Shown here: piece by piece, positions 10,293 to 50,108 of the stretch
Layout of the letters: each line of letters starts with the position of its first letter
Numbering within the stretch: the stretch's first letter is position 1
NCBI GenBank assembly: GCA_048270185.1
Contig: JBLWTJ010000001.1
Coordinates: 704,001-768,000 of the forward strand
Direction of reading: 5' to 3'
Source: Bacteriovoracaceae bacterium
GTDB taxonomy: Bacteria; Bdellovibrionota; Bacteriovoracia; Bacteriovoracales; Bacteriovoracaceae
Length of the DNA stretch: 64,000 nt
The notes under the pieces: model-generated
Seen by the model: only the letters and a program-made list of their open reading frames with translations
The model's database searches: none
Told to the model about the DNA's origin: nothing
Made by a program: the position numbers and the translations under genes

Positions 10293-12221
10293 TCAAAAGC
10301 CCGAGTAAAACCCTAGAGTTTCAGGATTGGCCACGGCCTGAATATTATCCAGTGCTCGCCCATTGATAAGGCGGCTCACGGCCATTTCCATCTTCTTACC
10401 AGAGCGAGTGTATGGGATGCCTTTGACGGCAATCACTCTCTTGGGCATGTGACGTGGGGTTGTATTTTCACGGATGCGATTTCTAATGAGCTTGATATCG
10501 TCTTCACTTAGTTCACGGCCGTCCTTTGTTACCACAAAGAGCCACACATCAACATCGCCTTCGATATTCTTTCCAACGCACACTGAATCTTCGATAAAGT
10601 CGATGGTTTCAGTTTGGCGATAGATTTCAGCGGTTCCGATTCTTACTCCCCCAGGATTTAGGGTTGCATCTGAGCGGCCAAGAACTTGGGCCCCACCAGA
10701 TTCAGTGATTTTGATGAAGTCACCGTGGTGCCAAACACCTTTAAATTCTGCAAAGTAGGCCTTGTGAATTCTTTCACCGTTATCATCATTTAAGAAATAG
10801 ATTGGGCGAGATGGAAAAGATTGGCGGCAAACGAGTTCGCCCTCTGCACCTTTGACTTCCTTGCCACGAGAATCAAAGCAAGTCACATCCATGCCAAGGC
10901 CAGCACATTGAAGCTCCCCTCTAAAGACCGGAAGAATCGGGTTTCCTAGAAAGAAACAACCAATGATATCCGTTCCACCAGAAATACTTGAAAGCTGAAT
11001 ATCTGATTTGATCCTATTATAAACGAAGTCAAATTGTTCAGGCAGCAGTGGTGCTCCTGTTGAAAGAATTGTTTCAAGACTTGAGAAATCAATCTTTGAA
11101 AGATCAGTGTCAGAGTCTTCTAGGGCCTTTAAGAATTTTGGGCTTGTGCCAAAAATATCAAGTTGCTCTCTTTCAATAATTGCTAGAAACTCTCCCATAG
11201 ATGGATAGGCCGGAGAGCCTTCATAGAGGACAACAGTTGAACCAAAGTAAAGAGAAGAAATCAGCCAATTCCACATCATCCAACCACAAGTTGTGAAGTA
11301 GAAGATTGAAGACTGCTCTTTTAGGTTTGAGTGAAGCCCAAGCTCTTTAATATGGTTAACAAGTGTTCCACCAATGCTGTGTACGATACACTTTGGCTTT
11401 CCAGTCGTTCCAGAAGAATACATGATATAAAGAGGATCAGCGAAGTTGCAATCAACATAAGTGATTTCATTATCACTTTCTTTAACCACTTCACTCCATG
11501 CCACGGCCTTATGAATTCTTGAAATATCAAGTCCCTCGCCATTGAAGTCAACGACGATAACTTTTTCAATTGAATCCACAACTTTAACAACAGCATTGAT
11601 TTTATCTGTGAGATCAAAGAATTTTCCACCGTACTCGTAACCATTAACAGTAACGAGAACTTTAGGACGAGATTGGCCAAAGCGATCAATCACTCCTTCT
11701 ATTCCAAAGTCACTTGAAGTCGAAGTAAAGACACCACCAAGCCCCGTTGTAGCAAGCATGGCAATTGGTGTTTCCGCGATATTTGGCATATAGCACGCAA
11801 GAACTTCACCTTTTGAAATGTGAGGCGCAATAACCTCTTGCAGCCCTGCTACTTGTTTACGAAGTGAACCGTAAGTCACACTACTTGTACGACCACTTTC
11901 ACGTACGCTCTTTAAAGCAATAGCAACGTCACGGCCATTCTTTAACATATTCCTTGCAAAGTTTAGCTTCACTTCAGGAAACCAACCGTAGCTATCAAAG
12001 CTTAAGTCGGTACAGACAGGCTCAAGATTTCCACTAAAGTCGACTTCATAGAATTTAATTAATTCTTTCCAAAAACCCTTTGGATTTTCGACAGAGTATT
12101 TATGAAGAGAGTGATAAGATTTGCAATCAAGTCCTTGGGTCTTATTAATCCACTTAATAAACTCCATCATATTCGATGACTGAACTTTCTCACTACTTGG
12201 CGTATATAAAATCTTATTCAC
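10293..12221 (-). CDS. Acetoacetate-CoA ligase (acetoacetyl-CoA synthetase)
   Basis: YIMYSSGTTGKPKCIVH AMP-binding loop; FYFTTCGWMMWNWL, SISGGTD, GRSDATLNPGGVRIGTAEIY typical of AACS. Confidence 0.9.
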   Translation of the reverse strand: MNKILYTPSSEKVQSSNMMEFIKWINKTQGLDCKSYHSLHKYSVENPKGFWKELIKFYEVDFSGNLEPVCTDLSFDSYGWFPEVKLNFARNMLKNGRDVAIALKSVRESGRTSSVTYGSLRKQVAGLQEVIAPHISKGEVLACYMPNIAETPIAMLATTGLGGVFTSTSSDFGIEGVIDRFGQSRPKVLVTVNGYEYGGKFFDLTDKINAVVKVVDSIEKVIVVDFNGEGLDISRIHKAVAWSEVVKESDNEITYVDCNFADPLYIMYSSGTTGKPKCIVHSIGGTLVNHIKELGLHSNLKEQSSIFYFTTCGWMMWNWLISSLYFGSTVVLYEGSPAYPSMGEFLAIIEREQLDIFGTSPKFLKALEDSDTDLSKIDFSSLETILSTGAPLLPEQFDFVYNRIKSDIQLSSISGGTDIIGCFFLGNPILPVFRGELQCAGLGMDVTCFDSRGKEVKGAEGELVCRQSFPSRPIYFLNDDNGERIHKAYFAEFKGVWHHGDFIKITESGGAQVLGRSDATLNPGGVRIGTAEIYRQTETIDFIEDSVCVGKNIEGDVDVWLFVVTKDGRELSEDDIKLIRNRIRENTTPRHMPKRVIAVKGIPYTRSGKKMEMAVSRLINGRALDNIQAVANPETLGFYSGF

Positions 12222-12241
12222 TTCTTCAAACCTTTAAAAAC

Positions 12242-12808
12242 TTAAACGAGACCTTTTAAGATCCCTGCACTCTCATTTTCAACTTTTTCATGGAGAGAGT
12301 TTCCATGGGCATCCATTGTCACAACAACAGGAAATTCATCAACTGTTAATTCCCAAATTGCTTCTGGTGAACCAAGATCACGCCAGTAAACATTATCAAC
12401 TGATTTAATTTTTTCGGCAAGAACTTGTGCAGCTCCACCAATTCCGTGGAAGTAAACACAACCGTACTCTTTACAACCAGCAAGAGTCTTTGGCCCCATT
12501 CCACCTTTACCGATAACACCGAGAATTCCGTGGTCACGCATAACTTCCCATTGGTATGGCTCCTCACGAATTGAAGTTGTCGGTCCTGCAGCTTTTACTT
12601 CATAACTGCCATCTTTATTTTCAAGTACAACTGGCCCGCAGTGGTAGATGATTTGATTATTTAAATCAACTGGAGGAGGAGTCCCTTCGTGAAGACGCTT
12701 GTGAACGGCATCGCGTCCTGTAAACATCTTGCCAGAGATTAAAACCATATCCCCTACTTTTAGTTCTCTAATTTGTTCTTTTGTGAATGGATAGTCTAAA
12801 CGTTTCAT
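12242..12808 (-). CDS. Class I fumarate hydratase beta subunit (split Fe-S type)
   Basis: GRDAVHKRL, IYHCGP, AGPTTSIR, GKGGMG, PEAIW, MDAHGNSLH. Confidence 0.9.
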   Translation of the reverse strand: MKRLDYPFTKEQIRELKVGDMVLISGKMFTGRDAVHKRLHEGTPPPVDLNNQIIYHCGPVVLENKDGSYEVKAAGPTTSIREEPYQWEVMRDHGILGVIGKGGMGPKTLAGCKEYGCVYFHGIGGAAQVLAEKIKSVDNVYWRDLGSPEAIWELTVDEFPVVVTMDAHGNSLHEKVENESAGILKGLV

Positions 12809-12822
12809 GTTCTAACCTCTTA

Positions 12823-14010
12823 CTAGTATAACCATTTATTGATTGTATTATTTGCTTTAAGAGCAATACCTTGTCTTCTAAATGCCCAGCACATATATGA
12901 GACTGAAACAAAGAATGATGCCGGCAGGCGGTTTAGATCTGTTACCTTACATCCTAGAAGAGTTGTCTTTCCACCAAATCCCATTGGCCCAATACCAAGT
13001 TTATTTGCCGTTTCAACGATATCTTTTTCAAGGTCAGCAAGAACTGGATTAGCATTAGAATCATCAAGCTTTCTTAGGAATTGATCTTTAGCAGCGACGT
13101 GACCTGTACCACGATCACCACCGATACAAACCCCAAGAACACCAGGACCACAACCCTTACCTTGAGCCTTTTGAACACAATCAAGGATAACCTTTCTTAC
13201 ACCATCAAGGTCTCGTCCTGCGTTTAACTCAGTATTTGGAAGTGAGTATTGAGCACCAACGTTCTCACATCCTCCACCTTTAAGCATAAGCTTTACTTCA
13301 AGATTCTTTGACTTGTGTTGAACGAATTTGATAACAGGGTGACCGCCACCAACGTTCATACAGTCATTCTTTCCAGTTAGTGAGTTTACTGAGTTCTGTC
13401 TAAGGTAACCGATTTCAGTTGCCTTAAGAACGGCCTTCTCACAAACTTTTCTAAATGCTGCTTGATCAAAGTCTTTTGGGTGATAAACCTTGAAAACAAT
13501 TGTTCCCGTATCTTGGCAAAGTGGCTGAGATTTCATTTCGGCCATCTTGATATTTGCTTGAATGATATTCATTGCGTATTCAGCTGTTGTGTTCTTTTCT
13601 TCTCTGTGAAGAGCTTCAAGAACGACTTTTTGAACGTCATCAGGTAGAACTGTTGAAGTTACTCTAACTAGTTCTAAGAGTGATTCAAAAAGAGCTTTGC
13701 TTGGGTTCGCCTTTTTCTTTGTAACTTTCTTAGTCGCTTTCTTTGCTACTTTTTTCTTCGTAACTTTTTTGGCTACTTTTTTCTTAGTAGCTTTCTTTGC
13801 CACTTTCTTCTTTGTAACTTTCTTAGTAGCTTTCTTAGTAGCTTTCTTTGCCACTTTTTTCTTAGCTACTTTCTTAGTCGCTTTCTTCGTAGTTTTTTTG
13901 GCTACTTTCTTCTTTGTAACTTTTTTGGCTACTTTCTTAGTCGCTTTCTTCGTAGTTTTTTTGGCTACTTTCTTAGTTGCTTTCTTTTTGGCCACTTTCT
14001 TTTTTGCCAC
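12823..14010 (-). CDS. Class I fumarate hydratase alpha subunit with N-terminal histone-H1-like Lys-rich extension
   Basis: PLCQDTG, KGGGCEN, KGCGP, GIGPMGFGG, CWAFRR; GTG start with GGAG RBS; first 100 aa are K/A/V/T repeats. Confidence 0.88.
   Translation of the reverse strand: MAKKKVAKKKATKKVAKKTTKKATKKVAKKVTKKKVAKKTTKKATKKVAKKKVAKKATKKATKKVTKKKVAKKATKKKVAKKVTKKKVAKKATKKVTKKKANPSKALFESLLELVRVTSTVLPDDVQKVVLEALHREEKNTTAEYAMNIIQANIKMAEMKSQPLCQDTGTIVFKVYHPKDFDQAAFRKVCEKAVLKATEIGYLRQNSVNSLTGKNDCMNVGGGHPVIKFVQHKSKNLEVKLMLKGGGCENVGAQYSLPNTELNAGRDLDGVRKVILDCVQKAQGKGCGPGVLGVCIGGDRGTGHVAAKDQFLRKLDDSNANPVLADLEKDIVETANKLGIGPMGFGGKTTLLGCKVTDLNRLPASFFVSVSYMCWAFRRQGIALKANNTINKWLY
13711..14010 (-). repeat. 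Degenerate tandem repeat encoding (VA/AT/VT/TT)KK(K), about 22 units
   Basis: Visible in protein and DNA (recurrent ggctactttcttagt/cgctttctt on the + strand). Confidence 0.9.
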
Positions 14011-14020
14011 ATCTGACTCC

Positions 14021-15079
14021 TTAATCTATATAGAAAAAATTTCCAAATTCATGTGCATACTTCTGTGTAATCATCCCATACCCTGGGTAGCTTACACCAT
14101 CTAATTTAAACTTCTTTCCAAAGCCTTTCACACCCCAAGAATTCTTGAAGTAGTAAACACCCTTATACTCAAAGAATTTCCAAGAACCGTCTTCCATTTG
14201 CATACGAGTTCTAACGACAACGTCATCATCGTAACCAACAAGAATCATCGAGTGTCCTCCTCCGTTAACGGCAGAGATGCGACGATCACGAGTTCCAACT
14301 TCAGGATAGCCAACGATTCCGGCATACCACTTGGACTTATCACGCTCTTGAATTTCATAGGTTTCAGTCTTCTTTGAGTTCCAAGAACCATAGTATAACT
14401 TAGTTCCTAGAATAACGGACTTACCTTGGCTTAACCATTTCTTAATTTTACTCAAGTCTTTCGACTTATATGACTTTTTTCTTGAGAAAAGATCATTCAC
14501 TAAAGTATCTCTTAAATAAATTGATTCCTTTCTAATAGGAATGAAGTCAGGGTCAATTTTAGAGATATCATAATCTGTCATTTCAAATAGTCGTGGATCT
14601 CTTTGTCCAAGAAGACATGACTTAAGATACTGAAGTTTTTCAACGAGATGACCACAAGTCTTGCGGGCCACATTGATTTGAGGAAAGTCTTCATCAAGTG
14701 AAGGCCACTTCTTCCTCTCGTAAGGCCAAGTCGATTCATAGACAACACCCCAATCATAAATGGCACGCATATTCTTTGAAGTTGTTGAACCTTCGTAAGA
14801 TTTATCCTTCATGATTAGGTATTCCATCCACTGCTCAGACAGATCGACTTCAGTAGGAAGAAAGCCTTGTTTCTTAATAAGTAAGTGTTCAACAATTCCT
14901 ATTGCACTAAACATCGTACACGTTCCGCGAGAGCCCTGAGACTTAACGGAAGATTGCATACTTATAAGCTCATGAATATTACTTTTGCTTGGATAATCTT
15001 GTGCCCTTACCGAGGCAAAGACAAGAGTGAATAGAATTGAAAAATTCAATAATTTTGATAAGGTACGTGTTGTTTTCAT
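14021..15079 (-). CDS. Secreted papain-like (C1 family) cysteine peptidase
   Basis: QGSRGTC (oxyanion Gln, catalytic Cys), DLSEQ, GGHSMILVGYDD (His), FKNSWG (Asn); N-terminal hydrophobic signal. Confidence 0.85.
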   Translation of the reverse strand: MKTTRTLSKLLNFSILFTLVFASVRAQDYPSKSNIHELISMQSSVKSQGSRGTCTMFSAIGIVEHLLIKKQGFLPTEVDLSEQWMEYLIMKDKSYEGSTTSKNMRAIYDWGVVYESTWPYERKKWPSLDEDFPQINVARKTCGHLVEKLQYLKSCLLGQRDPRLFEMTDYDISKIDPDFIPIRKESIYLRDTLVNDLFSRKKSYKSKDLSKIKKWLSQGKSVILGTKLYYGSWNSKKTETYEIQERDKSKWYAGIVGYPEVGTRDRRISAVNGGGHSMILVGYDDDVVVRTRMQMEDGSWKFFEYKGVYYFKNSWGVKGFGKKFKLDGVSYPGYGMITQKYAHEFGNFFYID

Positions 15080-15195
15080 GGTCAAAATTCTGACTCTTTA
15101 ACTCGGAATTAGCAAGATGCGTTGCATGACGAAAAGCCTGTGCAAAGCCTCTAAAACATATTGCCTAATCACCTTCTGACAGGCACATTATAGAC

Positions 15196-17241
15196 ATGAT
15201 TTCATTGGCAGGATTAAACGACAAACAACGCGAGGCAGCTGAGACCATCGAAGGCCCAGTACTTATTCTCGCAGGAGCAGGAAGTGGTAAGACTCGTACT
15301 CTTACTTACCGTATTGCTCACATGGTCGACAACCTCCACATCCCTTCAAAGCAGATCCTAGCAGTATCCTTTACCAATAAGGCCGCCAAGGAAATGAAAG
15401 AGCGCGTTATTACTCTCTTAGGCAAGCAGAAATCTCGTGGGATGACACTTGCGACATTTCATTCCCTAGGGCTTAAGATTCTAAAGAAAGAAATCGTCCA
15501 CCTTGGCTATCATAAGAATTTTTCCATCTATGACACAACCGATCAGATGGCCATTATTCGTGAAGGGCTTCGTCTCTATCACGATAATAAGGGAAACTTT
15601 AAGAAAGAAATCATTCAATCAAAGATCGGAAAACTTAAGAACGAAGGGATCACGCCTGAGAACTTTGCCGACTCACCATATTTTGATGGTGAAGACCCAT
15701 ACGATCACGCTACGAATTTTATATACGATTTCTATCAAGAAAAGCTTAAATTCTATAACGCCATCGATTTCGATGATATTTTGCTACTTACTGTAAAGCT
15801 CTTCGATGAAAACCCAGATATTGCAAAAGAGTATTCATCAAATTTTCAATATATCATGGTTGATGAATACCAAGATACAAATCCACTACAATTTAACTTA
15901 ATTCGCCATCTAACAACAACTCACGATAATCTATGTGTTGTTGGAGATGACGATCAGGCCATCTATTCATTTAGAGGTGCTGATATTTCAAATATTATTG
16001 GCTTTGAAAGAGACTACTCTCGTGCCAAAGTCGTTAAGCTTGAACAAAATTATCGTTCAGTTTCTCCAATACTAAAACTAGCAAACGCTGTTATTAAAGA
16101 GAATGCAGATCGACGAGATAAGACTCTTTGGTCAGATAAACCAAGTGATCTCAAACCAATTCTATGGGAATTAGAGGATACGGATCACGAAGCCGAAATC
16201 ATTGTTGAAGATATTGTCTCTCATCAATCAAAAGGTGGACACCTCGGTGATATCGCAGTTCTCTACCGCTCAAATACTCAAGCGGCACCAATAGAAGAAC
16301 AGCTAAGACTTTCACAAGTTCCTTATACTATTATAGGTGGCCAAAAGTTTTACGAAAAGAAAGAAGTAAAAGATATTATGGCCTATCTGATGCTCATCAA
16401 GAATCACTCAGATCAAATGTCACTAAGAAGAATTCTAAACGTTCCAAACCGCGGTATTGGAATGAAGACTTTAGAAAAATTCCTAGAAGAAAGTGAGGCC
16501 CATCAAACTGATCTCTTCAGTGTTCTAAAAAACTCACCAGAGATTGCAGGAACAAGAGCAGAAAAGATAGAAGGCTTTGTTCAGATTATTGAAACGGCAA
16601 AATCATACTTTGAAAAATACACACTAAGTGAGGCCATAACAAATCTCATCGAAGATTTAAAATACTTTGAATATATCGATAAATGCTACGATCAGGCCAA
16701 ACAGGCCAGTCGCAGGAAAGATGATATTCACTTCTTCATTGAATCAGCGGCGCGTTTTACTGAGAATTTCAAAGAATCAGCAACACTTGATAAATTCATG
16801 GAAAAACTCATGCTTCAAGACTCGCAAGATAATCAAAATGAGGAAGAAGATGATGATGTTAGAAAGAATGAAGTAACACTTATGACACTTCACTCATCTA
16901 AAGGCCTTGAGTTTAAACAAGTTTATATGGTTGGCGTTGAAGAAGAAATTCTTCCGCATAAGAGAACAATTATCAACAATGAAGGTGATGCTGAAGAGCG
17001 CAGGCTTTGTTATGTTGGGGTCACTCGAGCTCAAGAAAAGCTTATCATGACAGTATGTAAGCAAAGAAAGATTTATGGAAATATGCTTCCACGTCACCGC
17101 TCACGTTTTATTGTCACAGAAGATGCCAAGAGATTTTATACAGAACAAGACCGCCAAAACTTTGGTCACCTAGGATCACAAGAAGAAATTGAAGAATATA
17201 AGAAGGATTTCTTCTCTGGCCTTATGAATCTTCTAGATTAA
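15196..17241 (+). CDS. UvrD/Rep/PcrA family SF1A DNA helicase
   Basis: AGAGSGKT, VDEYQDTN, VGDDDQAIY, LEQNYRS, TLHSSKGLEF, EERRLCYVGVTRA; ends without the PcrA/UvrD C-terminal tail (Rep-like length). Confidence 0.93.
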   Translation: MISLAGLNDKQREAAETIEGPVLILAGAGSGKTRTLTYRIAHMVDNLHIPSKQILAVSFTNKAAKEMKERVITLLGKQKSRGMTLATFHSLGLKILKKEIVHLGYHKNFSIYDTTDQMAIIREGLRLYHDNKGNFKKEIIQSKIGKLKNEGITPENFADSPYFDGEDPYDHATNFIYDFYQEKLKFYNAIDFDDILLLTVKLFDENPDIAKEYSSNFQYIMVDEYQDTNPLQFNLIRHLTTTHDNLCVVGDDDQAIYSFRGADISNIIGFERDYSRAKVVKLEQNYRSVSPILKLANAVIKENADRRDKTLWSDKPSDLKPILWELEDTDHEAEIIVEDIVSHQSKGGHLGDIAVLYRSNTQAAPIEEQLRLSQVPYTIIGGQKFYEKKEVKDIMAYLMLIKNHSDQMSLRRILNVPNRGIGMKTLEKFLEESEAHQTDLFSVLKNSPEIAGTRAEKIEGFVQIIETAKSYFEKYTLSEAITNLIEDLKYFEYIDKCYDQAKQASRRKDDIHFFIESAARFTENFKESATLDKFMEKLMLQDSQDNQNEEEDDDVRKNEVTLMTLHSSKGLEFKQVYMVGVEEEILPHKRTIINNEGDAEERRLCYVGVTRAQEKLIMTVCKQRKIYGNMLPRHRSRFIVTEDAKRFYTEQDRQNFGHLGSQEEIEEYKKDFFSGLMNLLD

Positions 17242-17554
17242 ATTCCACTGTTACAGTTTGTGATGAATAGCCAGGAATAAGGCTTAACAGAGCTTCAAAG
17301 AATCCCTGAGAAATACCCACTCGCATTTTTGTTACTTCAGAGCACTTATAACTGCGTTGCTGTAGGATATCTCGAAGACGACGTTCTTCGATACCAAAAC
17401 CTGAAATATTCTTTTCGACTTTATAATCTAAGACTTCATCTGACTTTGCCCAGACTCCATTTCTTGAATTACAAAATTTCGAATTTAGCTTAACACCACT
17501 AGCACACGAGGTAGCAAGAATTACTATTGGTAGAAGACTAATCAAAAACTTCAT
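17222..17554 (-). CDS. Bor/Iss-like small lipoprotein
   Basis: Lipobox LATSC; C-terminal QGFFEALLSLIPGYSSQTVTV resembles the Bor-family pattern; start at ATG 17554 or 17560. Confidence 0.55.
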   Translation of the reverse strand: MKFLISLLPIVILATSCASGVKLNSKFCNSRNGVWAKSDEVLDYKVEKNISGFGIEERRLRDILQQRSYKCSEVTKMRVGISQGFFEALLSLIPGYSSQTVTVEFNLEDS

Positions 17555-17903
17555 ATTCATTCTCTCCAATATCAGCATCTGCTCTTGTCTCAATTGTCTT
17601 CTCATTAAATAGGCCAAGACTTAGAAATTTTAAAAGTTGCTGTAAACCTGTCTCGTATTCACTGATCTCAACTCGAGAAACATATTCACTACGGTTACGA
17701 AAAAGTCCGTCTCCCATCGCAATCTTATGTTGCTTAGGCAGATTTCCATAGAACATATTCTCAATTGTTCTGTGCTCCTTTAGGTCCACGACTTCTCGGT
17801 TAGCATGTTTAGAAATATGTAAAAGTCGATTGCCGTCACCTGAGTACAATGTACTCGAACATGAGACTGATAAAATCAAAAATGTTAATAGTGACAGCTT
17901 CAA
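17538..17903 (-). CDS. Bor/Iss-like small lipoprotein
   Basis: TTG start; lipobox SVSC; FYG motif and ETGLQQLLKFLSLGLFNEKTI resemble the Bor family. Confidence 0.55.
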   Translation of the reverse strand: MKLSLLTFLILSVSCSSTLYSGDGNRLLHISKHANREVVDLKEHRTIENMFYGNLPKQHKIAMGDGLFRNRSEYVSRVEISEYETGLQQLLKFLSLGLFNEKTIETRADADIGENEYEVFD

Positions 17904-17906
17904 GTA

Positions 17907-18722
17907 TTAATTACCTTTAAAGTCCGGTGCTCTTTTTTCTTTAAGTGCTGCAAGCCCTTCAAAGTGATCATTGGTTCTTTGAGCAATCCCTTGGTAGGCA
18001 CTCATAAGATTTAGATGAGCTTCAAGATCATCACGAGATGCTCTCTTCATTGCTGTCTTTGTCATTTGCACCGCAACTGGTGCATTAGCAGAAATTTCAT
18101 TGGCCATGGCCATAACTGCAAGCTCAAGATCTTCACTTGTAACAATATTATTGATTAGCCCCATGTGCATAACTTCTTTAGCTGTATAGATGCGCCCTGT
18201 AAGATACATTTCCATGGCCTTAGTGTATCCAACCTTACGAGTTAGAAAATACGGTCCCCCATCCCCTGGAACAAGAGAGAGCTTACAGAAAGTCTCACCA
18301 AACTTAGCATCATCACTTGCGATTGCAAGATCACACATCGCCACAAGATCACAACCAGCACCAATTGCACCACCATGAACCATGGCAATAATTGGCTTTT
18401 GTAATCTTTCAATTGTTCTTGGAATATTTTGAATCCCTTTAGAGTAGCGATTTCTTAATTCAAATGGCTCACCTGCAAACATTCCCTTGCGACTAACCAT
18501 GGCCTTTATATCACCACCAGCACAGAAGTTTTCTCCTTCACCTTTAAGAACGATAACACGCACTTCATTATCACCATCAGCATAAGTTAGAACTTCAGTT
18601 AATGAGGCGATCATTTTATTTGTAATGGCATTGGCCATTTTTGTATTATCAAGACTTACCCAAAGAGTATGACCTTTTAGTTCTACTTTTAAGTGTTCAA
18701 ATTCATAGCCGTAAATAGACAT
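17907..18722 (-). CDS. Enoyl-CoA hydratase/isomerase family protein
   Basis: FCAGGDI, AIGAGCDL, FGETFCKLSLVPGDGG. Confidence 0.88.
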   Translation of the reverse strand: MSIYGYEFEHLKVELKGHTLWVSLDNTKMANAITNKMIASLTEVLTYADGDNEVRVIVLKGEGENFCAGGDIKAMVSRKGMFAGEPFELRNRYSKGIQNIPRTIERLQKPIIAMVHGGAIGAGCDLVAMCDLAIASDDAKFGETFCKLSLVPGDGGPYFLTRKVGYTKAMEMYLTGRIYTAKEVMHMGLINNIVTSEDLELAVMAMANEISANAPVAVQMTKTAMKRASRDDLEAHLNLMSAYQGIAQRTNDHFEGLAALKEKRAPDFKGN

Positions 18723-19636
18723 TACTTTCTTCCTTTATATGCTTGAAAAAATTTAGATGGTGCTTGATGACCTATCTTATTCGTGATGAATTCACTAGCT
18801 TTATGTAGTTTGTCCATATCAACACCAGTATCAAGTCCTAATTTGTGTAGGAGATTGACGACATCATCAGTTGCAACATTCCCACTGGCCCCTTTTGCAT
18901 ATGGGCATCCTCCAAGACCTGCTGCTGACGAATCAAATACTTCGATATCTCCATTAGATGCCTCAAGAGAAGCATAGATATTGGCCAAGGCCATCCCTTC
19001 TGTATCGTGAAAGTGCATCGCCATTTGAGATAGTTCAAATTTTGAATCAATAAGTTTTACGATTCTCTTTACTTGAGCAGGGTTTGCAACTCCAATAGTA
19101 TCCCCTAGGGAGATTTCATAACAGCCAAGTTCTAGCAAGCGTTCGATACCTTCAATAATTGATTTATCTGTAACATCTTTTTCATAAGGACAGCCAAAGA
19201 CGGTTGAAAGATAACCACGCATCTTCATACCATTCGCCTTTGCAACTTTGGCCACTTCAACTTGTCTTTGATGAGCTTCTTCAACAGTAGCATTGATATT
19301 AGTCTGATTAAATGTATTTGAAGTCGCAGTAAACATGCTAATTTCTTTCACACCTAAGTCACGAGCAATTTCGAGCCCCTTAAGATTAGGCACAAGACAT
19401 GGAGTCGCAATCCCTAAAGGGTCAGTAAATTTTAAAACCTCAGGGTATAGTGTTGCCGCATCCTGCATCTGAGGAATTTTTTCAGCACGTACAAAGCTTG
19501 TTACTTCAATTGTTTTAAGTCCTGTTTCACTTAGAAGGCGAATAAATTCTAATTTATCAGTGGTGGCCACGAATGTTTTCTCATTCTGTAGGCCATCTCT
19601 TGGACCAACTTCAACAATTTTAACTTTCTTACTCAT
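18722..19636 (-). CDS. liuE: Hydroxymethylglutaryl-CoA lyase
   Basis: EVGPRDGLQNE, SLGDTIG, HFHDT, GLGGCPYAKGASGNVAT. Confidence 0.92.
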   Translation of the reverse strand: MSKKVKIVEVGPRDGLQNEKTFVATTDKLEFIRLLSETGLKTIEVTSFVRAEKIPQMQDAATLYPEVLKFTDPLGIATPCLVPNLKGLEIARDLGVKEISMFTATSNTFNQTNINATVEEAHQRQVEVAKVAKANGMKMRGYLSTVFGCPYEKDVTDKSIIEGIERLLELGCYEISLGDTIGVANPAQVKRIVKLIDSKFELSQMAMHFHDTEGMALANIYASLEASNGDIEVFDSSAAGLGGCPYAKGASGNVATDDVVNLLHKLGLDTGVDMDKLHKASEFITNKIGHQAPSKFFQAYKGRK

Positions 19637-19647
19637 ATTCTTTCCAA

Positions 19648-21552
19648 TTAAGTTAACTCGACGAGATCAACTCCACCATCAACAGTCTGCCCTTCACTTA
19701 CAAGAACAGCATCAATACTACCATCACGAGAAGCCTTTACTGTATGTTCCATTTTCATTGCTTCCATCACTACAAGAGCGTCACCAACTTTCACTTTCTG
19801 TCCAGCTTCAACAAGAACCTTAAGAATCTTCCCTGGCATTGGGGAGCTCATTTCATGGGCCTCACCAGCGGCACTTCCAGATCGTTTTGCAACACTTCTC
19901 TTTAAAGCAACTTTCTTGCTATTTACAATATAAGCATTCTTCTGAGTTAAGATATGAAATGGTGTTTCATTAATCCATAGTGAATCTTCTTCAATATCAA
20001 CTGTGAAAGTATATTCTTCAAAACGTACGATCAGTGAGCTGACACCAGAGAATTTGAAATCAGCTTTGATTAGACGATCTGCGAATTCATACTGACGATT
20101 TTCTCTAATTTCACCACTCATACGAAACGAATCCATCAGGATATCGTCTTTTAAAAAGTCATGAGCAAGAGTTGCTGCGATTTCTTCAGCATAAACTTCT
20201 GCAGGAGCTAGATCTTCTTCATAAGTTTTTACAAAGTGAGTATATGTATTACCTTCTAAGAATGCTTCATGCTTTAAGATTCTTACAAGATAGTCATTAT
20301 TTGTTGTAAGACCTTCAAAAGGAAGATGATTAAGTCCTGCAATCATTGTTCCGATTGCTTCATTTCTCTCAGCTCCCCAAGTGATAACTTTTGCTATCAT
20401 CGGGTCAAAGTTTACAGTAATTGAATTTCCATTCTTATAACCTGTATCAAGTCTTACTTGATCAAGGGCATCTCCAATATATTCAAGACGGCCAATTGCT
20501 GGCATGAAATCATTATCAGGATCTTCTGCATAAATTCGGCATTCAATGGCGTGTCCTACTTGCTTAATATCATCTTGTGAAAAATCAAAAGCCTGTCCAC
20601 TTGCTGCAATTAATTGAAGTTCAACAAGATCAAATCCTGTTACCATTTCAGTGACAGGGTGTTCAACTTGCAGACGAGTATTCATCTCAAGAAAATAAAA
20701 ATCTTGTCCATCAAGGATAAGCTCAACCGTACCAGCACCATGGTAGTTAATTGTCTTCGTTATCTTAACTGCGGCATCAGTCATCTTCTTTCTTAGTTCT
20801 TCATCAAGAGCAAGAGATGGACTTTCTTCAACAATCTTTTGATGGCGTCTTTGAATAGAGCACTCTCTTTCAAAGAAATGAAAGTGGTTACCGTGTGTAT
20901 CACTCATCACCTGGATTTCGATGTGACGAGGGCTTGTGATAAATTTTTCAATAAGAACAATATCTGAACCAAAAGAGCTTAGGGCCTCACGCTTGCAGCT
21001 TTCAAGTTCGGCCATGAAGTCTTTTGAATCTTCAACAATTCTCATTCCCTTTCCACCACCTCCAGCAGAGGCCTTGATAAGAACAGGGTAGCCCATCTTA
21101 TCAGCTTCTTCTTTCAGAAGGGCCGGGTCCTGATTTTCTCCGTTGTAACCAGGGATAACAGGTACTCCAATTTCAATCATCTTATCTTTTGAACCTTTCT
21201 TATCTCCCATTAGAATAATATGTTCAGGAGTTGGTCCAATAAAAATTAAACCTGCATCACTTACTTTCTGTGCGAAAGTCGCATTCTCAGATAAGAAGCC
21301 ATAACCCGGGTGAATCGCATCACAACCACTTTCTTTTGCAATTTGAATGATCTTATCCATATTGAGATATGTTTCACTAAGAAGCTTTCCTTCAAGATAG
21401 AAAGATTCATCGGCATATTCTCTTTGAGGTAGATTTCTTTCCTCAAAAGTATAAAGTGTTACCGTTTTAATGCCGAGGTTTCGACAAGTCTTAATTACTC
21501 GAAGAGCGATTTCAGCACGGTTTGCAATAAGGACTTTTTTAATTTCTTTCAT
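19648..21552 (-). CDS. liuD: 3-methylcrotonyl-CoA carboxylase alpha (biotin carboxylase + BCCP)
   Basis: IANRAEIA, HPGYGFLSEN, GGGGKGMR, EMNTRLQVEHPVTE, EAMKM biotin site; operon context. Confidence 0.88.
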   Translation of the reverse strand: MKEIKKVLIANRAEIALRVIKTCRNLGIKTVTLYTFEERNLPQREYADESFYLEGKLLSETYLNMDKIIQIAKESGCDAIHPGYGFLSENATFAQKVSDAGLIFIGPTPEHIILMGDKKGSKDKMIEIGVPVIPGYNGENQDPALLKEEADKMGYPVLIKASAGGGGKGMRIVEDSKDFMAELESCKREALSSFGSDIVLIEKFITSPRHIEIQVMSDTHGNHFHFFERECSIQRRHQKIVEESPSLALDEELRKKMTDAAVKITKTINYHGAGTVELILDGQDFYFLEMNTRLQVEHPVTEMVTGFDLVELQLIAASGQAFDFSQDDIKQVGHAIECRIYAEDPDNDFMPAIGRLEYIGDALDQVRLDTGYKNGNSITVNFDPMIAKVITWGAERNEAIGTMIAGLNHLPFEGLTTNNDYLVRILKHEAFLEGNTYTHFVKTYEEDLAPAEVYAEEIAATLAHDFLKDDILMDSFRMSGEIRENRQYEFADRLIKADFKFSGVSSLIVRFEEYTFTVDIEEDSLWINETPFHILTQKNAYIVNSKKVALKRSVAKRSGSAAGEAHEMSSPMPGKILKVLVEAGQKVKVGDALVVMEAMKMEHTVKASRDGSIDAVLVSEGQTVDGGVDLVELT

Positions 21553-47561: not shown

Positions 47562-50108
47562 ATGGAAGATGGTAAACCGCTCATATTTCTAGAGCCCCTC
47601 ACTGATAGCGTTAAGAAGCTTAAAGAAGCCCTTGAAGCAACGGCCGAACAGGACGGAATAGAGATCTATGAAGTCGAAAATCCAGAGGAATACAATCAAC
47701 TAATCCCTACAATTGGCCAATCACTAACTATTGCATGCTCTCCTAAAAAGACAGCACAATGTATTCAACCATTAAGAAAATTCATTTTAAAGAATAACGT
47801 CAAAGTACTTCTTATTAATAATAAGAATATTCCACCTAAGACTTTAGAGAAGTTCAGAAAGATAGGACTTACTGAATATATACAGGAACCAGTTCCTCCT
47901 AAAACCCTACTCTATAAAGTTAGTCTTATTCTACGCTCCTTGAAAAAAGCTGAAGAAGAGCATGATATGGAGTTTAAAACAGGTGAAGAGCGACAGGTCA
48001 TCGAAAATGATTATGAAGACAAGAAAGAGAGTTCTCGCTTTGCTAACGGTGGAAAACTTGAAGGTAAAGTTCATAAGCAAGAACATATAAAAGATAATAA
48101 AGATGTCTTTGACGATAATATGCTCTTTAATGATGGTGGCGAAGCGACTCAAGAAGATCCACATAAGAATACCAAAGAGTACAATGCACGCCAAAAACAA
48201 GATTCCTCCACAAGTGGAAGGTTAACTGGCCAAATTTCCAATCAGAAGAAGTATGGTGATGAAAATGATGACTTTGATGATGACGAAGATCTATTTGGTT
48301 CACTTGATAATATAAAGAAGTCTCAAAATAAAGCAGACAAGCTTGGAGGTCACCTTCAAGGTAGTGTTTCTAAAGCGCAAGAACAAGAAGACAATGATGA
48401 CTTTGATGCAGATGATCTCTTTAAGAGTCTCGATCAGAATACTAAGTCATCTTACAAAGAGGAAGACAAAGGTGGAAACCTTAGAGGTGATCTTGCTTCA
48501 ATAGAAAAAGAAGAGTCTTCTAAAGAAGAAGATGTTGATGACCTCTTTGCTAGCCTCGATAAGAACTCTAAGTCATCATATAAAGAAGAAGACAAGGGTG
48601 GAAAACTAAAGGGTAATGTTGAGACAACAAAACGCGAAGAGCTCGAAGAAGATGACTTTGATGAAGACCTCTTTGCTAGTCTTGATAACGTTAAAAAGTC
48701 TTCATATAAAGATGCACCTCAAGCAGGGGTTCTAAAAGGTGATGTCTCTCCTACTATTGATGCTGTGGAAGATGAAAAAGATAAGGACGAAGACCTATTT
48801 GCAAGCCTTGATGATATTAAGAAATCGTCTTTTCAAGATAAACAGTCAGCTCCTTTAAAGGGAGATGTGACAGCAAATGATGAAACATCTCCTACTCAAA
48901 AAGATCGAGAAGCACAAGAAGACCTCCTTGCTGGACTCGATGCCGTAAAAAAGAATAAGGCCCCAACAGGTATTGATGATATTGACCCCGAGCTCTTAGA
49001 AGATATGGACTTTCTTCAAGAAGAGTCTCAAAAATCAAATCTTTCAGGTGATCATAGTAACGAATTAATTGATAATGAAAAGGGCCTAGAAAGGAAAGGG
49101 AATGAAAAGACGGATGCAAAATCTCGCTCCGATCAAGACCTATTCGATTCCCTGGCCAAGCACGCTTCCGAAGAAGCTCCTCGCCCGGCCAATGAAGAAC
49201 TCTCTCTAAGAAGACCTGAGGATGAAGCGGACACACCTGATGAAAATCGTGGTACGTCCGATACAATCACATATGAGAAGAAAGGTGACCTTGGAGAGCA
49301 GACAATTGACTATCGAAATCTCGATAAACAACCAGTCTATGAAGGTGGAACTAAAGAAAAGCTTGAAATAAAAATCACTGATGGACAAGCTGCTCAAGTA
49401 AAGAAAGAGCAAGAAGGCTTCGAACATCAAGAATCATCATTCGAAGATGATGATCTCTTTGATTTCGATTTTGATGACGACGACGATGAATACGATGCAG
49501 AGGAAGAAGCACGAGCTCAAGCTGAAGCGCAAAGAGAAGCAGAAGAAGAGGCCCGCGAAGAACAAGAACTTGAAGAGGCCCTCAATTCTATAATTATCCC
49601 AGATCCAAAAGATATGGACTTCTTTATTGAAGCTACAAATAAAGTTATTCTTGGTGATAGCATCAAACAAATGACAAGTGATTATATCAATAGCTTCTGT
49701 AGTGGAACACTCGTTGTTTATAACCTTGAAAATGAATGTATTCTAGGCAATGAGATTGTTGATGAGCGTTTCGAGGCAATTAAAAATGTTTTAAAGATAA
49801 AGCGCAAACCAAGTTGGAACGATACAAGCTTTCGAAGTGAACTTCTATACTACCACTGCCCTATTATTGAAAACGGTCGATATCATAACTTCATCATCTT
49901 TATGACAACACCTCAAGATATCAATCGCGACAAAGCTATACCAGCACGTATTGAGCTATGTATGACGGCCCTAAAGGGAAGCTATCTAAATGGGGATGAT
50001 CGAAGCACCACAAAAATTGAAACGAAAAAATCGGCCATTAATAATGTGAAAGATTCGGTTTCAGGCCTATTTAAAGGCTTCTTTGGAAAGAAAGAAAAAA
50101 AGGCATAG
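47562..50108 (+). CDS. Pseudo-receiver domain protein with long acidic repeat region and C-terminal globular domain
   Basis: N-terminal ~125 aa fit a REC pattern (KIGLTEYIQEPV..KTLLYKV) without the canonical Asp; D/E-rich repeats. Confidence 0.7.
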   Translation: MEDGKPLIFLEPLTDSVKKLKEALEATAEQDGIEIYEVENPEEYNQLIPTIGQSLTIACSPKKTAQCIQPLRKFILKNNVKVLLINNKNIPPKTLEKFRKIGLTEYIQEPVPPKTLLYKVSLILRSLKKAEEEHDMEFKTGEERQVIENDYEDKKESSRFANGGKLEGKVHKQEHIKDNKDVFDDNMLFNDGGEATQEDPHKNTKEYNARQKQDSSTSGRLTGQISNQKKYGDENDDFDDDEDLFGSLDNIKKSQNKADKLGGHLQGSVSKAQEQEDNDDFDADDLFKSLDQNTKSSYKEEDKGGNLRGDLASIEKEESSKEEDVDDLFASLDKNSKSSYKEEDKGGKLKGNVETTKREELEEDDFDEDLFASLDNVKKSSYKDAPQAGVLKGDVSPTIDAVEDEKDKDEDLFASLDDIKKSSFQDKQSAPLKGDVTANDETSPTQKDREAQEDLLAGLDAVKKNKAPTGIDDIDPELLEDMDFLQEESQKSNLSGDHSNELIDNEKGLERKGNEKTDAKSRSDQDLFDSLAKHASEEAPRPANEELSLRRPEDEADTPDENRGTSDTITYEKKGDLGEQTIDYRNLDKQPVYEGGTKEKLEIKITDGQAAQVKKEQEGFEHQESSFEDDDLFDFDFDDDDDEYDAEEEARAQAEAQREAEEEAREEQELEEALNSIIIPDPKDMDFFIEATNKVILGDSIKQMTSDYINSFCSGTLVVYNLENECILGNEIVDERFEAIKNVLKIKRKPSWNDTSFRSELLYYHCPIIENGRYHNFIIFMTTPQDINRDKAIPARIELCMTALKGSYLNGDDRSTTKIETKKSAINNVKDSVSGLFKGFFGKKEKKA
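48270..48960 (+). repeat. 126-bp (42-aa) tandem repeat, at least 6 units
   Basis: DLF/DLL codons at 48288, 48414, 48540, 48666, 48792, 48921; unit DLFxSLDxxxKSSYKxxxxGGxLxGxV. Confidence 0.85.

Follow-up and report, generated by a model that had tools for sequence, protein, structure and literature searches.

What does a histone H1-like lysine tail of 100 residues do on an enzyme of central metabolism? The question is raised by a gene on the minus strand of the window (the whole 64,000-nucleotide stretch of a Bacteriovoracaceae genome, G000, analyzed here), in which a repeat of lysine, alanine, threonine, and valine precedes the alpha subunit of a class I (Fe-S) fumarate hydratase (Table 1). 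The sequence-only reading of this DNA had described a GTG start with a GGAG ribosome-binding motif, 100 tail codons with 54 lysines and no acidic residue, and an intact alpha subunit following in frame with no ATG in between; all of this was borne out. The GGAG motif lies 6 nt upstream of the GTG on the minus strand (the earlier reading gave no strand). Residues 1 to 100 comprise 54 Lys, 17 Ala, 15 Thr, and 14 Val (the start codon counted as Val), with no Asp, Glu, or Arg, and the motifs CQDTG, KGGGCEN, GCGP, and CWA are found in frame at residues 165, 244, 286, and 374, respectively. No in-frame ATG occurs before codon 147, which falls within a predicted helix (residues 142 to 160) of the core, and the sequence upstream of the internal GTGs (codons 6, 53, and 70) is not Shine-Dalgarno (SD)-like. 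The GTG start is overlapped by an ATG in another frame, from which a 15-codon reading frame runs (window 13965-14012, minus strand); it is probably incidental.

Table 1. Features of the tailed fumarase locus (window coordinates).
Feature	Coordinates	Strand	Evidence
Tailed fumarase alpha reading frame, 395 aa, GTG start	14010->12823	-	
N-terminal Lys/Ala/Thr/Val repeat tail, aa 1-100	13711..14010	-	tandem-repeat and composition analysis, AlphaFold
Class I (Fe-S) fumarate hydratase alpha catalytic domain, aa 101-395	12823..13710	-	PF05681, TIGR00722, phmmer, Foldseek
GGAG ribosome-binding motif, 6 nt before GTG, overlapping the TAA of the upstream gene	14017..14020	-	
Fumarase beta subunit, 188 aa, tail-free	12242..12808	-	PF05683 193 bits; TIGR00723 over cut-off
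Acetoacetate--CoA ligase, next gene of the apparent operon	10293..12221	-	TIGR01217 over cut-off
Papain-family (C1) peptidase-like gene, directly upstream of alpha	14021..15085	-	PF00112

Could the true protein begin after the repeat, the tail being an annotation or assembly artefact? This was proposed for Bdellovibrio GroES2, where the first 107 aa of Bd3349, a repetitive stretch, were rejected as a start mis-call (PMC3464611). We consider such an artefact very improbable in our case, even granting the overlapping out-of-frame ATG and the fact that no contig of the public runs spans the whole repeat, so that the exact repeat count for this strain lacks independent confirmation. The stretch from tail to core offers no usable start, and close relatives keep an SD at the same spacing before an ATG start where the tail begins. 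All same-genus copies (12/12) carry the tail, which a contig end truncates in two cases. Among the 46 best-scoring Bacteriovoracaceae loci (G000 included), a choice that biases the sample toward close kin, 41 are N-tailed with an open frame at the junction, 4 are untailed, and 1 is cut, which argues against an artefact. The junction is also crossed in open frame by an independent contig of public DNA run X3 (record 9, 12702-13777, with 52 other letters).

The beta gene begins 14 nt downstream of alpha and is followed by the acetoacetate--CoA ligase gene, which adjoins the fumarase pair in 3/4 relatives examined; the papain-family neighbor is variable, being present at 1/4 relative loci. Besides acetoacetate-CoA ligase, the surroundings include genes for an HMG-CoA-lyase-like protein and an enoyl-CoA hydratase, which gives the locus a catabolic character. 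Within window positions 10293-21552, the pair is flanked by the ligase on one side and a divergent UvrD/PcrA-like helicase on the other, with leucine-catabolism-type genes close by, and the helicase is syntenic with the pair in 4/4 relatives examined. Elsewhere in the window (48411-48688), a degenerate 126-bp tandem duplication occupies an acidic/lysine-rich coding stretch. Homologues named Halobacteriovorax are 92 to 93% identical to the window protein, which places the organism in or close to this genus of marine predators.

The alpha domain scores 233 bits against PF05681, and alpha (PF05681, TIGR00722) and the adjacent beta (PF05683, TIGR00723) exceed all four family cut-offs. A phmmer search matched alpha to PDB 7xky_A, the M. 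jannaschii fumarase alpha subunit, with an E value of 5.6e-38, and Foldseek superposed the alpha model on the same chain with a TM(target) of 0.91, an rmsd of 2.1 Å, and 32% identity. The putative Fe-S ligands Cys165, Cys287, and Cys374 align with the cysteines of the CQD, CPP, and CWA motifs of 7xky_A and are invariant in 76/76 aligned rows. By the active-site residue criteria of PMC13147460, alpha D167, R204, and G247 are the alignment equivalents of D75, R115, and G160 in 7XKY; beta R32, T77, T78, R81, and K101 correspond to R32, T80, T81, R84, and K104, the beta residues being mapped by motif (TGRD, GPTTS, IREE, IGKGG) and spacing only.

The proximal loop reads K244GGGC248, which is neither the KGXGS of fumarases nor the AGGGC of L-tartrate dehydratases. 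KGGGC is the loop variant of Bacilli fumarases, and the loop alone does not set specificity (bioRxiv 2023.06.17.545066). Leu362 stands in for the His that partners the catalytic Asp (His257 in Mj, His334 in Lm), a replacement that is subfamily-wide, as the majority of tree rows read RLP (169) or RVP (84) at this position versus 42 with RHP. The score against the NCBIfam equivalog PRK06246 is 203.8 bits, short of its cut-off of 276, and the tartrate dehydratase model PRK08230 scores lower (166.7, cut-off 365). Because of the Leu at the His position and the missed equivalog cut-off, we can only infer fumarase activity for this enzyme. No class II fumarase (FumC) was found in the window's genome, whose single Lyase_1 match is PurB-like; thus, the tailed class I pair is probably its working fumarase. 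FumC is patchy among the same-genus genomes G001-G012 (over cut-off in 5/12, not found in 7/12), all of which have the tailed class I gene.

Two groups of relatives place the enzyme further. The M. jannaschii fumarase (PDB 7XKY; bioRxiv 2022.09.03.506457) shares the fold, the three Fe-S cysteines, the Asp/Arg/Gly equivalents, and separate alpha and beta genes, but it is untailed and differs in the loop (KGXGS) and in its His257. Bacilli-type class I fumarases fall within the same broad tree clade as the window protein and have the KGGGC loop in common, with Leu, Ile, or Val replacing the His in Bacillus rows L122 and L130; in contrast, they are described as single-subunit enzymes (bioRxiv 2023.06.17.545066), and the Bacillus rows scored without a basic tail.

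The tail itself is a degenerate tandem array (13714-14010; Tandem Repeats Finder matches of 64 to 93%). AlphaFold assigns no secondary structure to residues 1 to 102, with pLDDT values of 42 to 69 per 10-residue block against 91 to 99 for the remainder, and the tail is therefore predicted to be intrinsically disordered. With 54% Lys and 17% Ala over 100 aa, it falls within the definition of lysine-repeat (LR) tails in PMC5714199 (at least three repeats of 1 to 3 K/R split by neutral residues, at least 17 aa, at least 10% Lys, and at least 10% Ala) and below the stricter 27% Ala filter used there for TopA. The link of LR tails to GC-rich genomes does not extend to G000, which has 36.6% GC. Chlamydial Hc2 has a similar repetitive, pentapeptide-like K/A/T/V composition but is a stand-alone nucleoid protein; the window protein had no match to the Hc2 family (PF07382) at E ≤ 0.01, and relatives reached 28.8 to 29.9 bits against a gathering cut-off of 40. 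Bordetella BpH1 is a further stand-alone nucleoid protein of comparable repetitive K/A/T/V composition.

The gene is present in 12/12 same-genus genomes, in 26/36 family genomes, and in 120/149 of a larger sample. A search of orthologues found the tail to be widespread in Bacteriovoracaceae and highly variable in length. Of 119 scored homologues (121 proteins minus 2 without CQDTG, the window's protein counted twice), 74 have a long tail, 23 a short one, and 22 none, and extension length is continuous from 5 to 158 aa. In tails pre-selected as >35% Lys, 3,923 residues include 1,929 Lys codons (AAA 1,171, AAG 758), and Ala, Thr, and Val each draw on their full set of four codons, but Glu accounts for only 3 codons, Asp for 8, and Arg for 19. 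Glu and Arg codons are one transition from Lys. On these codon counts, the composition of the tail is under selection, since silent changes build up whereas changes from Lys to Glu or Arg, which are just as close, do not; its length is loose.

The notion that such a tail is unique to the fumarase did not hold. A six-frame scan of the genome (15,147 frames) returned 27 frames at a score of at least 20 and 13 at a score of at least 40, that is, 12 other reading frames besides the fumarase. The annotated ones on the nucleic-acid side are TopA, a topo IV/gyrase-like B and A pair, a histone-fold protein, IF-2, and RecQ; the others are AMP nucleosidase, QueF, a RimB-like protease, a TPR protein, and an HD-domain protein. 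Five annotated tailed frames had no family over cut-off. Among the identified enzymes, the fumarase has the longest tail. The K-rich segments on the genome's own topoisomerases and histone-fold protein bear out the sequence-only reading in that the fumarase tail shares its kind of repeat with DNA-binding proteins of this genome. Tails on AMP nucleosidase and TopA are likewise family-wide; AMP nucleosidase has a 45-aa N-terminal lysine tail in G000 (L038; C1:1735570-1736691, minus strand), and a tail was scored in 23/28 loci parsed. G031 keeps the TopA tail on an untailed-fumarase background.

Several of these proteins have layouts of their own. The lysine repeats of TopA (G000 C1:1138706-1141249, minus strand) are N-terminal, in contrast to the C-terminal ones of actinobacterial TopA, and a lysine tail ends both topo IV/gyrase-like proteins (B, C1:843290-845515; A, C1:841804-843279; minus strand). 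Two unannotated proteins (G000 C2:333530-334489, plus strand; C2:348019-349062, minus strand) have a lysine repeat of 150 to 172 aa followed by a strongly acidic region; neither had an NCBIfam match or a Pfam match over cut-off, and they are possibly self-inhibited H1-like proteins. The loci C1:98420-99226 (minus strand), C1:641360-641932 (plus strand), and C1:1220176-1220724 (minus strand) encode two helical-looking proteins with C-terminal lysine repeats, a layout that we take to resemble the phasin PhaF, and one stand-alone 146-aa repeat protein. Co-scaling of tail sizes as a genome-wide programme was also considered. The raw Spearman correlation with fumarase tail size was significant (AMP nucleosidase, rho 0.71, n = 18; TopA, rho 0.57, n = 22), and significance was lost with phylogenetic contrasts (r 0.45 and 0.29, respectively; r 0.29 to 0.52 across tail pairs, sign tests p 0.30 to 0.61); the idea was dropped.

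Beyond the family, basic tails occur at either end of the protein among the best 150 cluster representatives of the alpha subfamily, and in a 373-row tree the tailed rows fall into five separate clades. Tails are N-terminal in Bacteriovoracaceae, among the relatives of G182 (G182 plus 4 N-tailed and 1 borderline C-tailed among 24 relatives), and in a clade with a member named Thermoanaerobaculia; they are C-terminal in P0128/P0272, where the active site is intact, and in a degenerate clade with members named Planctomycetota. On the well-supported branches of a 60-row IQ-TREE quick tree, at least three changes are needed for N-tails and at least three for C-tails, counts that are blind to gain versus loss. 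The majority is untailed (70/79 named GTDB loci; 5 tailed, 4 cut). An AU test rejected a single clade of N-tailed rows (p 3e-49); it used 41/60 rows (dead and long rows dropped) and groups taken from the earlier tree, and is therefore supporting rather than independent evidence. The controls for tail gain, narrow as they are, carried no tails at all (0/168 beta subunits, 0/17 FumC proteins). Lysine-repeat DNA patterns occurred at a minimum of a few to some tens of places in five tail-clade genomes, among the matches listed. Judged from these trees, basic tails arose repeatedly on this fumarase alpha subfamily, in five separate clades. A role specific to predators, as the sequence-only reading had suggested, sits poorly with this distribution, which includes Thermoanaerobaculia and Planctomycetota, to our knowledge not BALO-type predators.

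The degenerate clade deserves separate treatment. Its 22 long-branched rows (19 distinct; proteins P0149, P0152, P0155, P0172, and P0273-P0278; loci L151, L152, and L209-L215; genomes G266, G208, G526, G527, G534, G533, G542, G478, and G528) have lost the equivalent of Cys165 in 21/22 and that of Cys374 in 22/22, keeping at most one ligand; loss of catalysis is predicted from these residues. Tails are C-terminal and K/A-rich in 20/22, with one row cut by a contig end and one short. The adjoining betas lack TGRD and GPTT in 6/6 scored, motifs that other betas keep in 158/162 and 161/162, respectively. The pair was found in 2/301 phylum genomes and in 9/51 relatives of G266. In 7/7 genomes checked, no PF05681 locus other than this pair was found, and each also encodes FumC (over cut-off in 6, divided between two contigs in the seventh). 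The frames are intact, mutual identity is 28 to 59%, and dN/dS is ~0.17 to 0.33 (dS near saturation), by which the pair is under purifying selection; the model of P0167 keeps the fold (TM 0.80 to 7xky_A). An intact, selected, tailed, and apparently dead pair suggests a scaffold kept for a job other than fumarase catalysis. The Halobacteriovorax protein need not share that role, because identity to the window protein is 31 to 41% and the tails are at opposite ends.

Two possible clues to the dead pair were pursued and set aside. The cores of the dead paralogues were no more basic than intact ones (net charge −7 to +1, against +3.5 on average over 300 intact rows). In the neighborhood, a DUF255 thioredoxin-domain gene follows in 5/7 loci and a DtxR-type regulator with an RlmI-like methyltransferase occurs in 2/7; no mechanism emerged from the seven loci. 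A GTDB scan with the dead-paralogue alignment gave no cysteine-less row among the matches listed, and an ESM Atlas search returned fumarase clusters only.

We lean, on balance, toward an active enzyme whose lysine tail serves as a non-specific polyanion tether, probably to the nucleoid. A two-subunit [4Fe-4S] fumarate hydratase would remain active, with the disordered lysine repeat of alpha acting electrostatically. Since the M. jannaschii enzyme assembles as alpha2-beta2 (bioRxiv 2022.09.03.506457), a similar assembly here would display two +54 tails per enzyme. These may bind a polyanion, most likely chromosomal DNA, with RNA or ribosomes possible, and DNA binding would keep the enzyme within or at the surface of the nucleoid, where it could bridge DNA in the manner of a minor H1-like protein. 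Longer tails would bind more strongly. Repeat slippage at a short basic N terminus probably gave rise to the tail, which would be an add-on, being missing from some relatives. More speculatively, lysine acylation might reverse binding, as for Streptomyces HupS, whose acetylation controls DNA binding (PMC11229371); the window's genome carries a sirtuin-family gene.

Known tails make such a tether plausible. Lysine repeats in the C-terminal domain of Streptomyces TopA are required for DNA binding (PMC5714199), the N-terminal H1-like domain of DdbA binds and condenses DNA (PMC3643593), and C. crescentus Ppk1 is localised by a basic tail (PMC3806658). The actinobacterial tails (Streptomyces TopA, HupS, Ku, DdbA) are likewise disordered, acetylatable K/A-rich repeats on a folded domain. 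They differ in having DNA-processing hosts, GC-rich genomes, and demonstrated binding (PMC5714199, PMC11229371, PMC3643593), whereas the window tail sits on a TCA enzyme in a low-GC genome, is richer in Lys, Thr, and Val and free of Pro, and its binding is predicted. The Ppk1 tail is also basic, missing in orthologues, and localises a metabolic enzyme, but it is C-terminal, has 22 residues, and belongs to an enzyme that makes polyphosphate (PMC3806658).

In favor of the tether we count the intact frame and active site, the family-wide tail of fixed composition, the five tailed clades set against untailed betas and FumC proteins, and the K-rich segments on TopA, both topo IV-like subunits, RecQ, IF-2, the histone-fold protein, and the stand-alone repeat protein, a repeat thus shared with topoisomerases and a histone. 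Against it we count the four Bacteriovoracaceae loci that keep the gene without the tail, and the tails on AMP nucleosidase, the RimB-like protease, and QueF, for which a DNA role is not known. Close to DNA, an Fe-S cluster may moreover put an aerobe at risk. E. coli class I fumarases are at the poles, away from the nucleoid (bioRxiv 2020.08.04.232652), which also weakens the DNA-damage link of the sequence-only reading, since that link rests on these very enzymes; the genome has an AlkB-family gene, but nothing observed links it to the locus. What stands of that reading is a real, in-frame fusion with a tail of selected composition and a repeat shared with DNA-binding proteins; its proposals on DNA damage, predator specificity, and polyphosphate found no support. 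The spread through the family, the repeated origins, and the dead tailed paralogues go beyond it.

Three other explanations have to be weighed against the tether. A moonlighting scaffold, in which the alpha(-beta) fold and tail do a catalysis-independent, possibly Fe-S-switched job on DNA or RNA and the Planctomycetota clade kept that job only, comes next in our estimation, though we rate it unlikely. Apo-aconitase/IRP1, which binds RNA, offers an analogy for such a switch. The dead clade, with its tails, intact and constrained frames, preserved fold, degenerate betas, and accompanying FumC, speaks for it; its distance from the window protein, its opposite-end tails, its cores no more basic than active ones, the many other lysine-repeat loci in its genomes, and a catalytic loss predicted from residues alone speak against. 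A broader version, in which the whole subfamily has a second, catalysis-independent role on chromosome or RNA, tails were added at least five times to reinforce it, a Planctomycetota clade kept a cluster-less tailed pseudo-fumarase for that role alone once FumC had taken over catalysis, and the Halobacteriovorax protein represents the dual-function state, is offered tentatively and likewise rated unlikely; it would be a bacterial parallel to the aconitase/IRP specialisation.

It is less likely still that the tail anchors the enzyme to another polyanion (anionic lipids of the inner membrane near succinate dehydrogenase, ribosomes or RNA, polyphosphate, or acidic partner proteins), forming a metabolic cluster or condensate. 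Lysine repeats can direct proteins elsewhere, as those of Plasmodium exported proteins target the erythrocyte periphery in a length-dependent manner (PMC5207086), and the Ppk1 tail may bind polyphosphate (PMC3806658). The catabolic locus and the two proteins that pair such a repeat with a long acidic region would suit this explanation. However, neither PPK1 nor PPK2 was found in the 95.9%-complete genome, which weakens polyphosphate as the ligand, other TCA enzymes are absent among the annotated tailed frames, and the identifiable tailed proteins mostly act on nucleic acids. A near-neutral passenger, that is, slippage-prone repeats expanding at a tolerant N terminus with selection purging only harmful residues, we regard as improbable. 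The wide length range, the tail losses nested among tailed relatives, and the raw co-variation of fumarase, AMP nucleosidase, and TopA tail sizes speak for it, but that co-variation is weak and not significant with phylogenetic contrasts, Glu and Arg are almost wholly excluded despite synonymous mixing, beta and FumC lack tails in the samples examined, and ~100 extra residues on a core enzyme should be costly. Our order of preference thus runs from the tether through the moonlighting scaffold, another polyanion, and a near-neutral passenger to an artefact.

Lysine-repeat tails and this enzyme family were each known before; the tail on the fumarase alpha subunit is real and selected. In the literature searched, no paper describing a fumarase with a lysine-tail fusion, and no description of a fumarase pseudoenzyme, was found. 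The supplement of PMC5714199 has no match to 'fumar', the extract of PMC11789641 does not mention fumarase, and the supplement of PMC6821194, as far as available, has at least three 'fumarate hydratase' rows, with one uncommented 15-aa Lys-rich stretch among the rows listed. The dead tailed alpha-beta pair, if it binds nucleic acid, would be such a pseudoenzyme.

If the tail is merely tolerated, it would be one more among many basic enzyme tails. The system is in any case a clean test case: the genus is culturable, a tail deletion would leave the active site untouched, nature supplies lengths between 5 and 158 residues, and in some relatives a FumC free of any tail offers an internal control. 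It may bear on two wider questions, namely, whether bacteria park central-metabolic enzymes on the chromosome and why fumarases recur in DNA biology.
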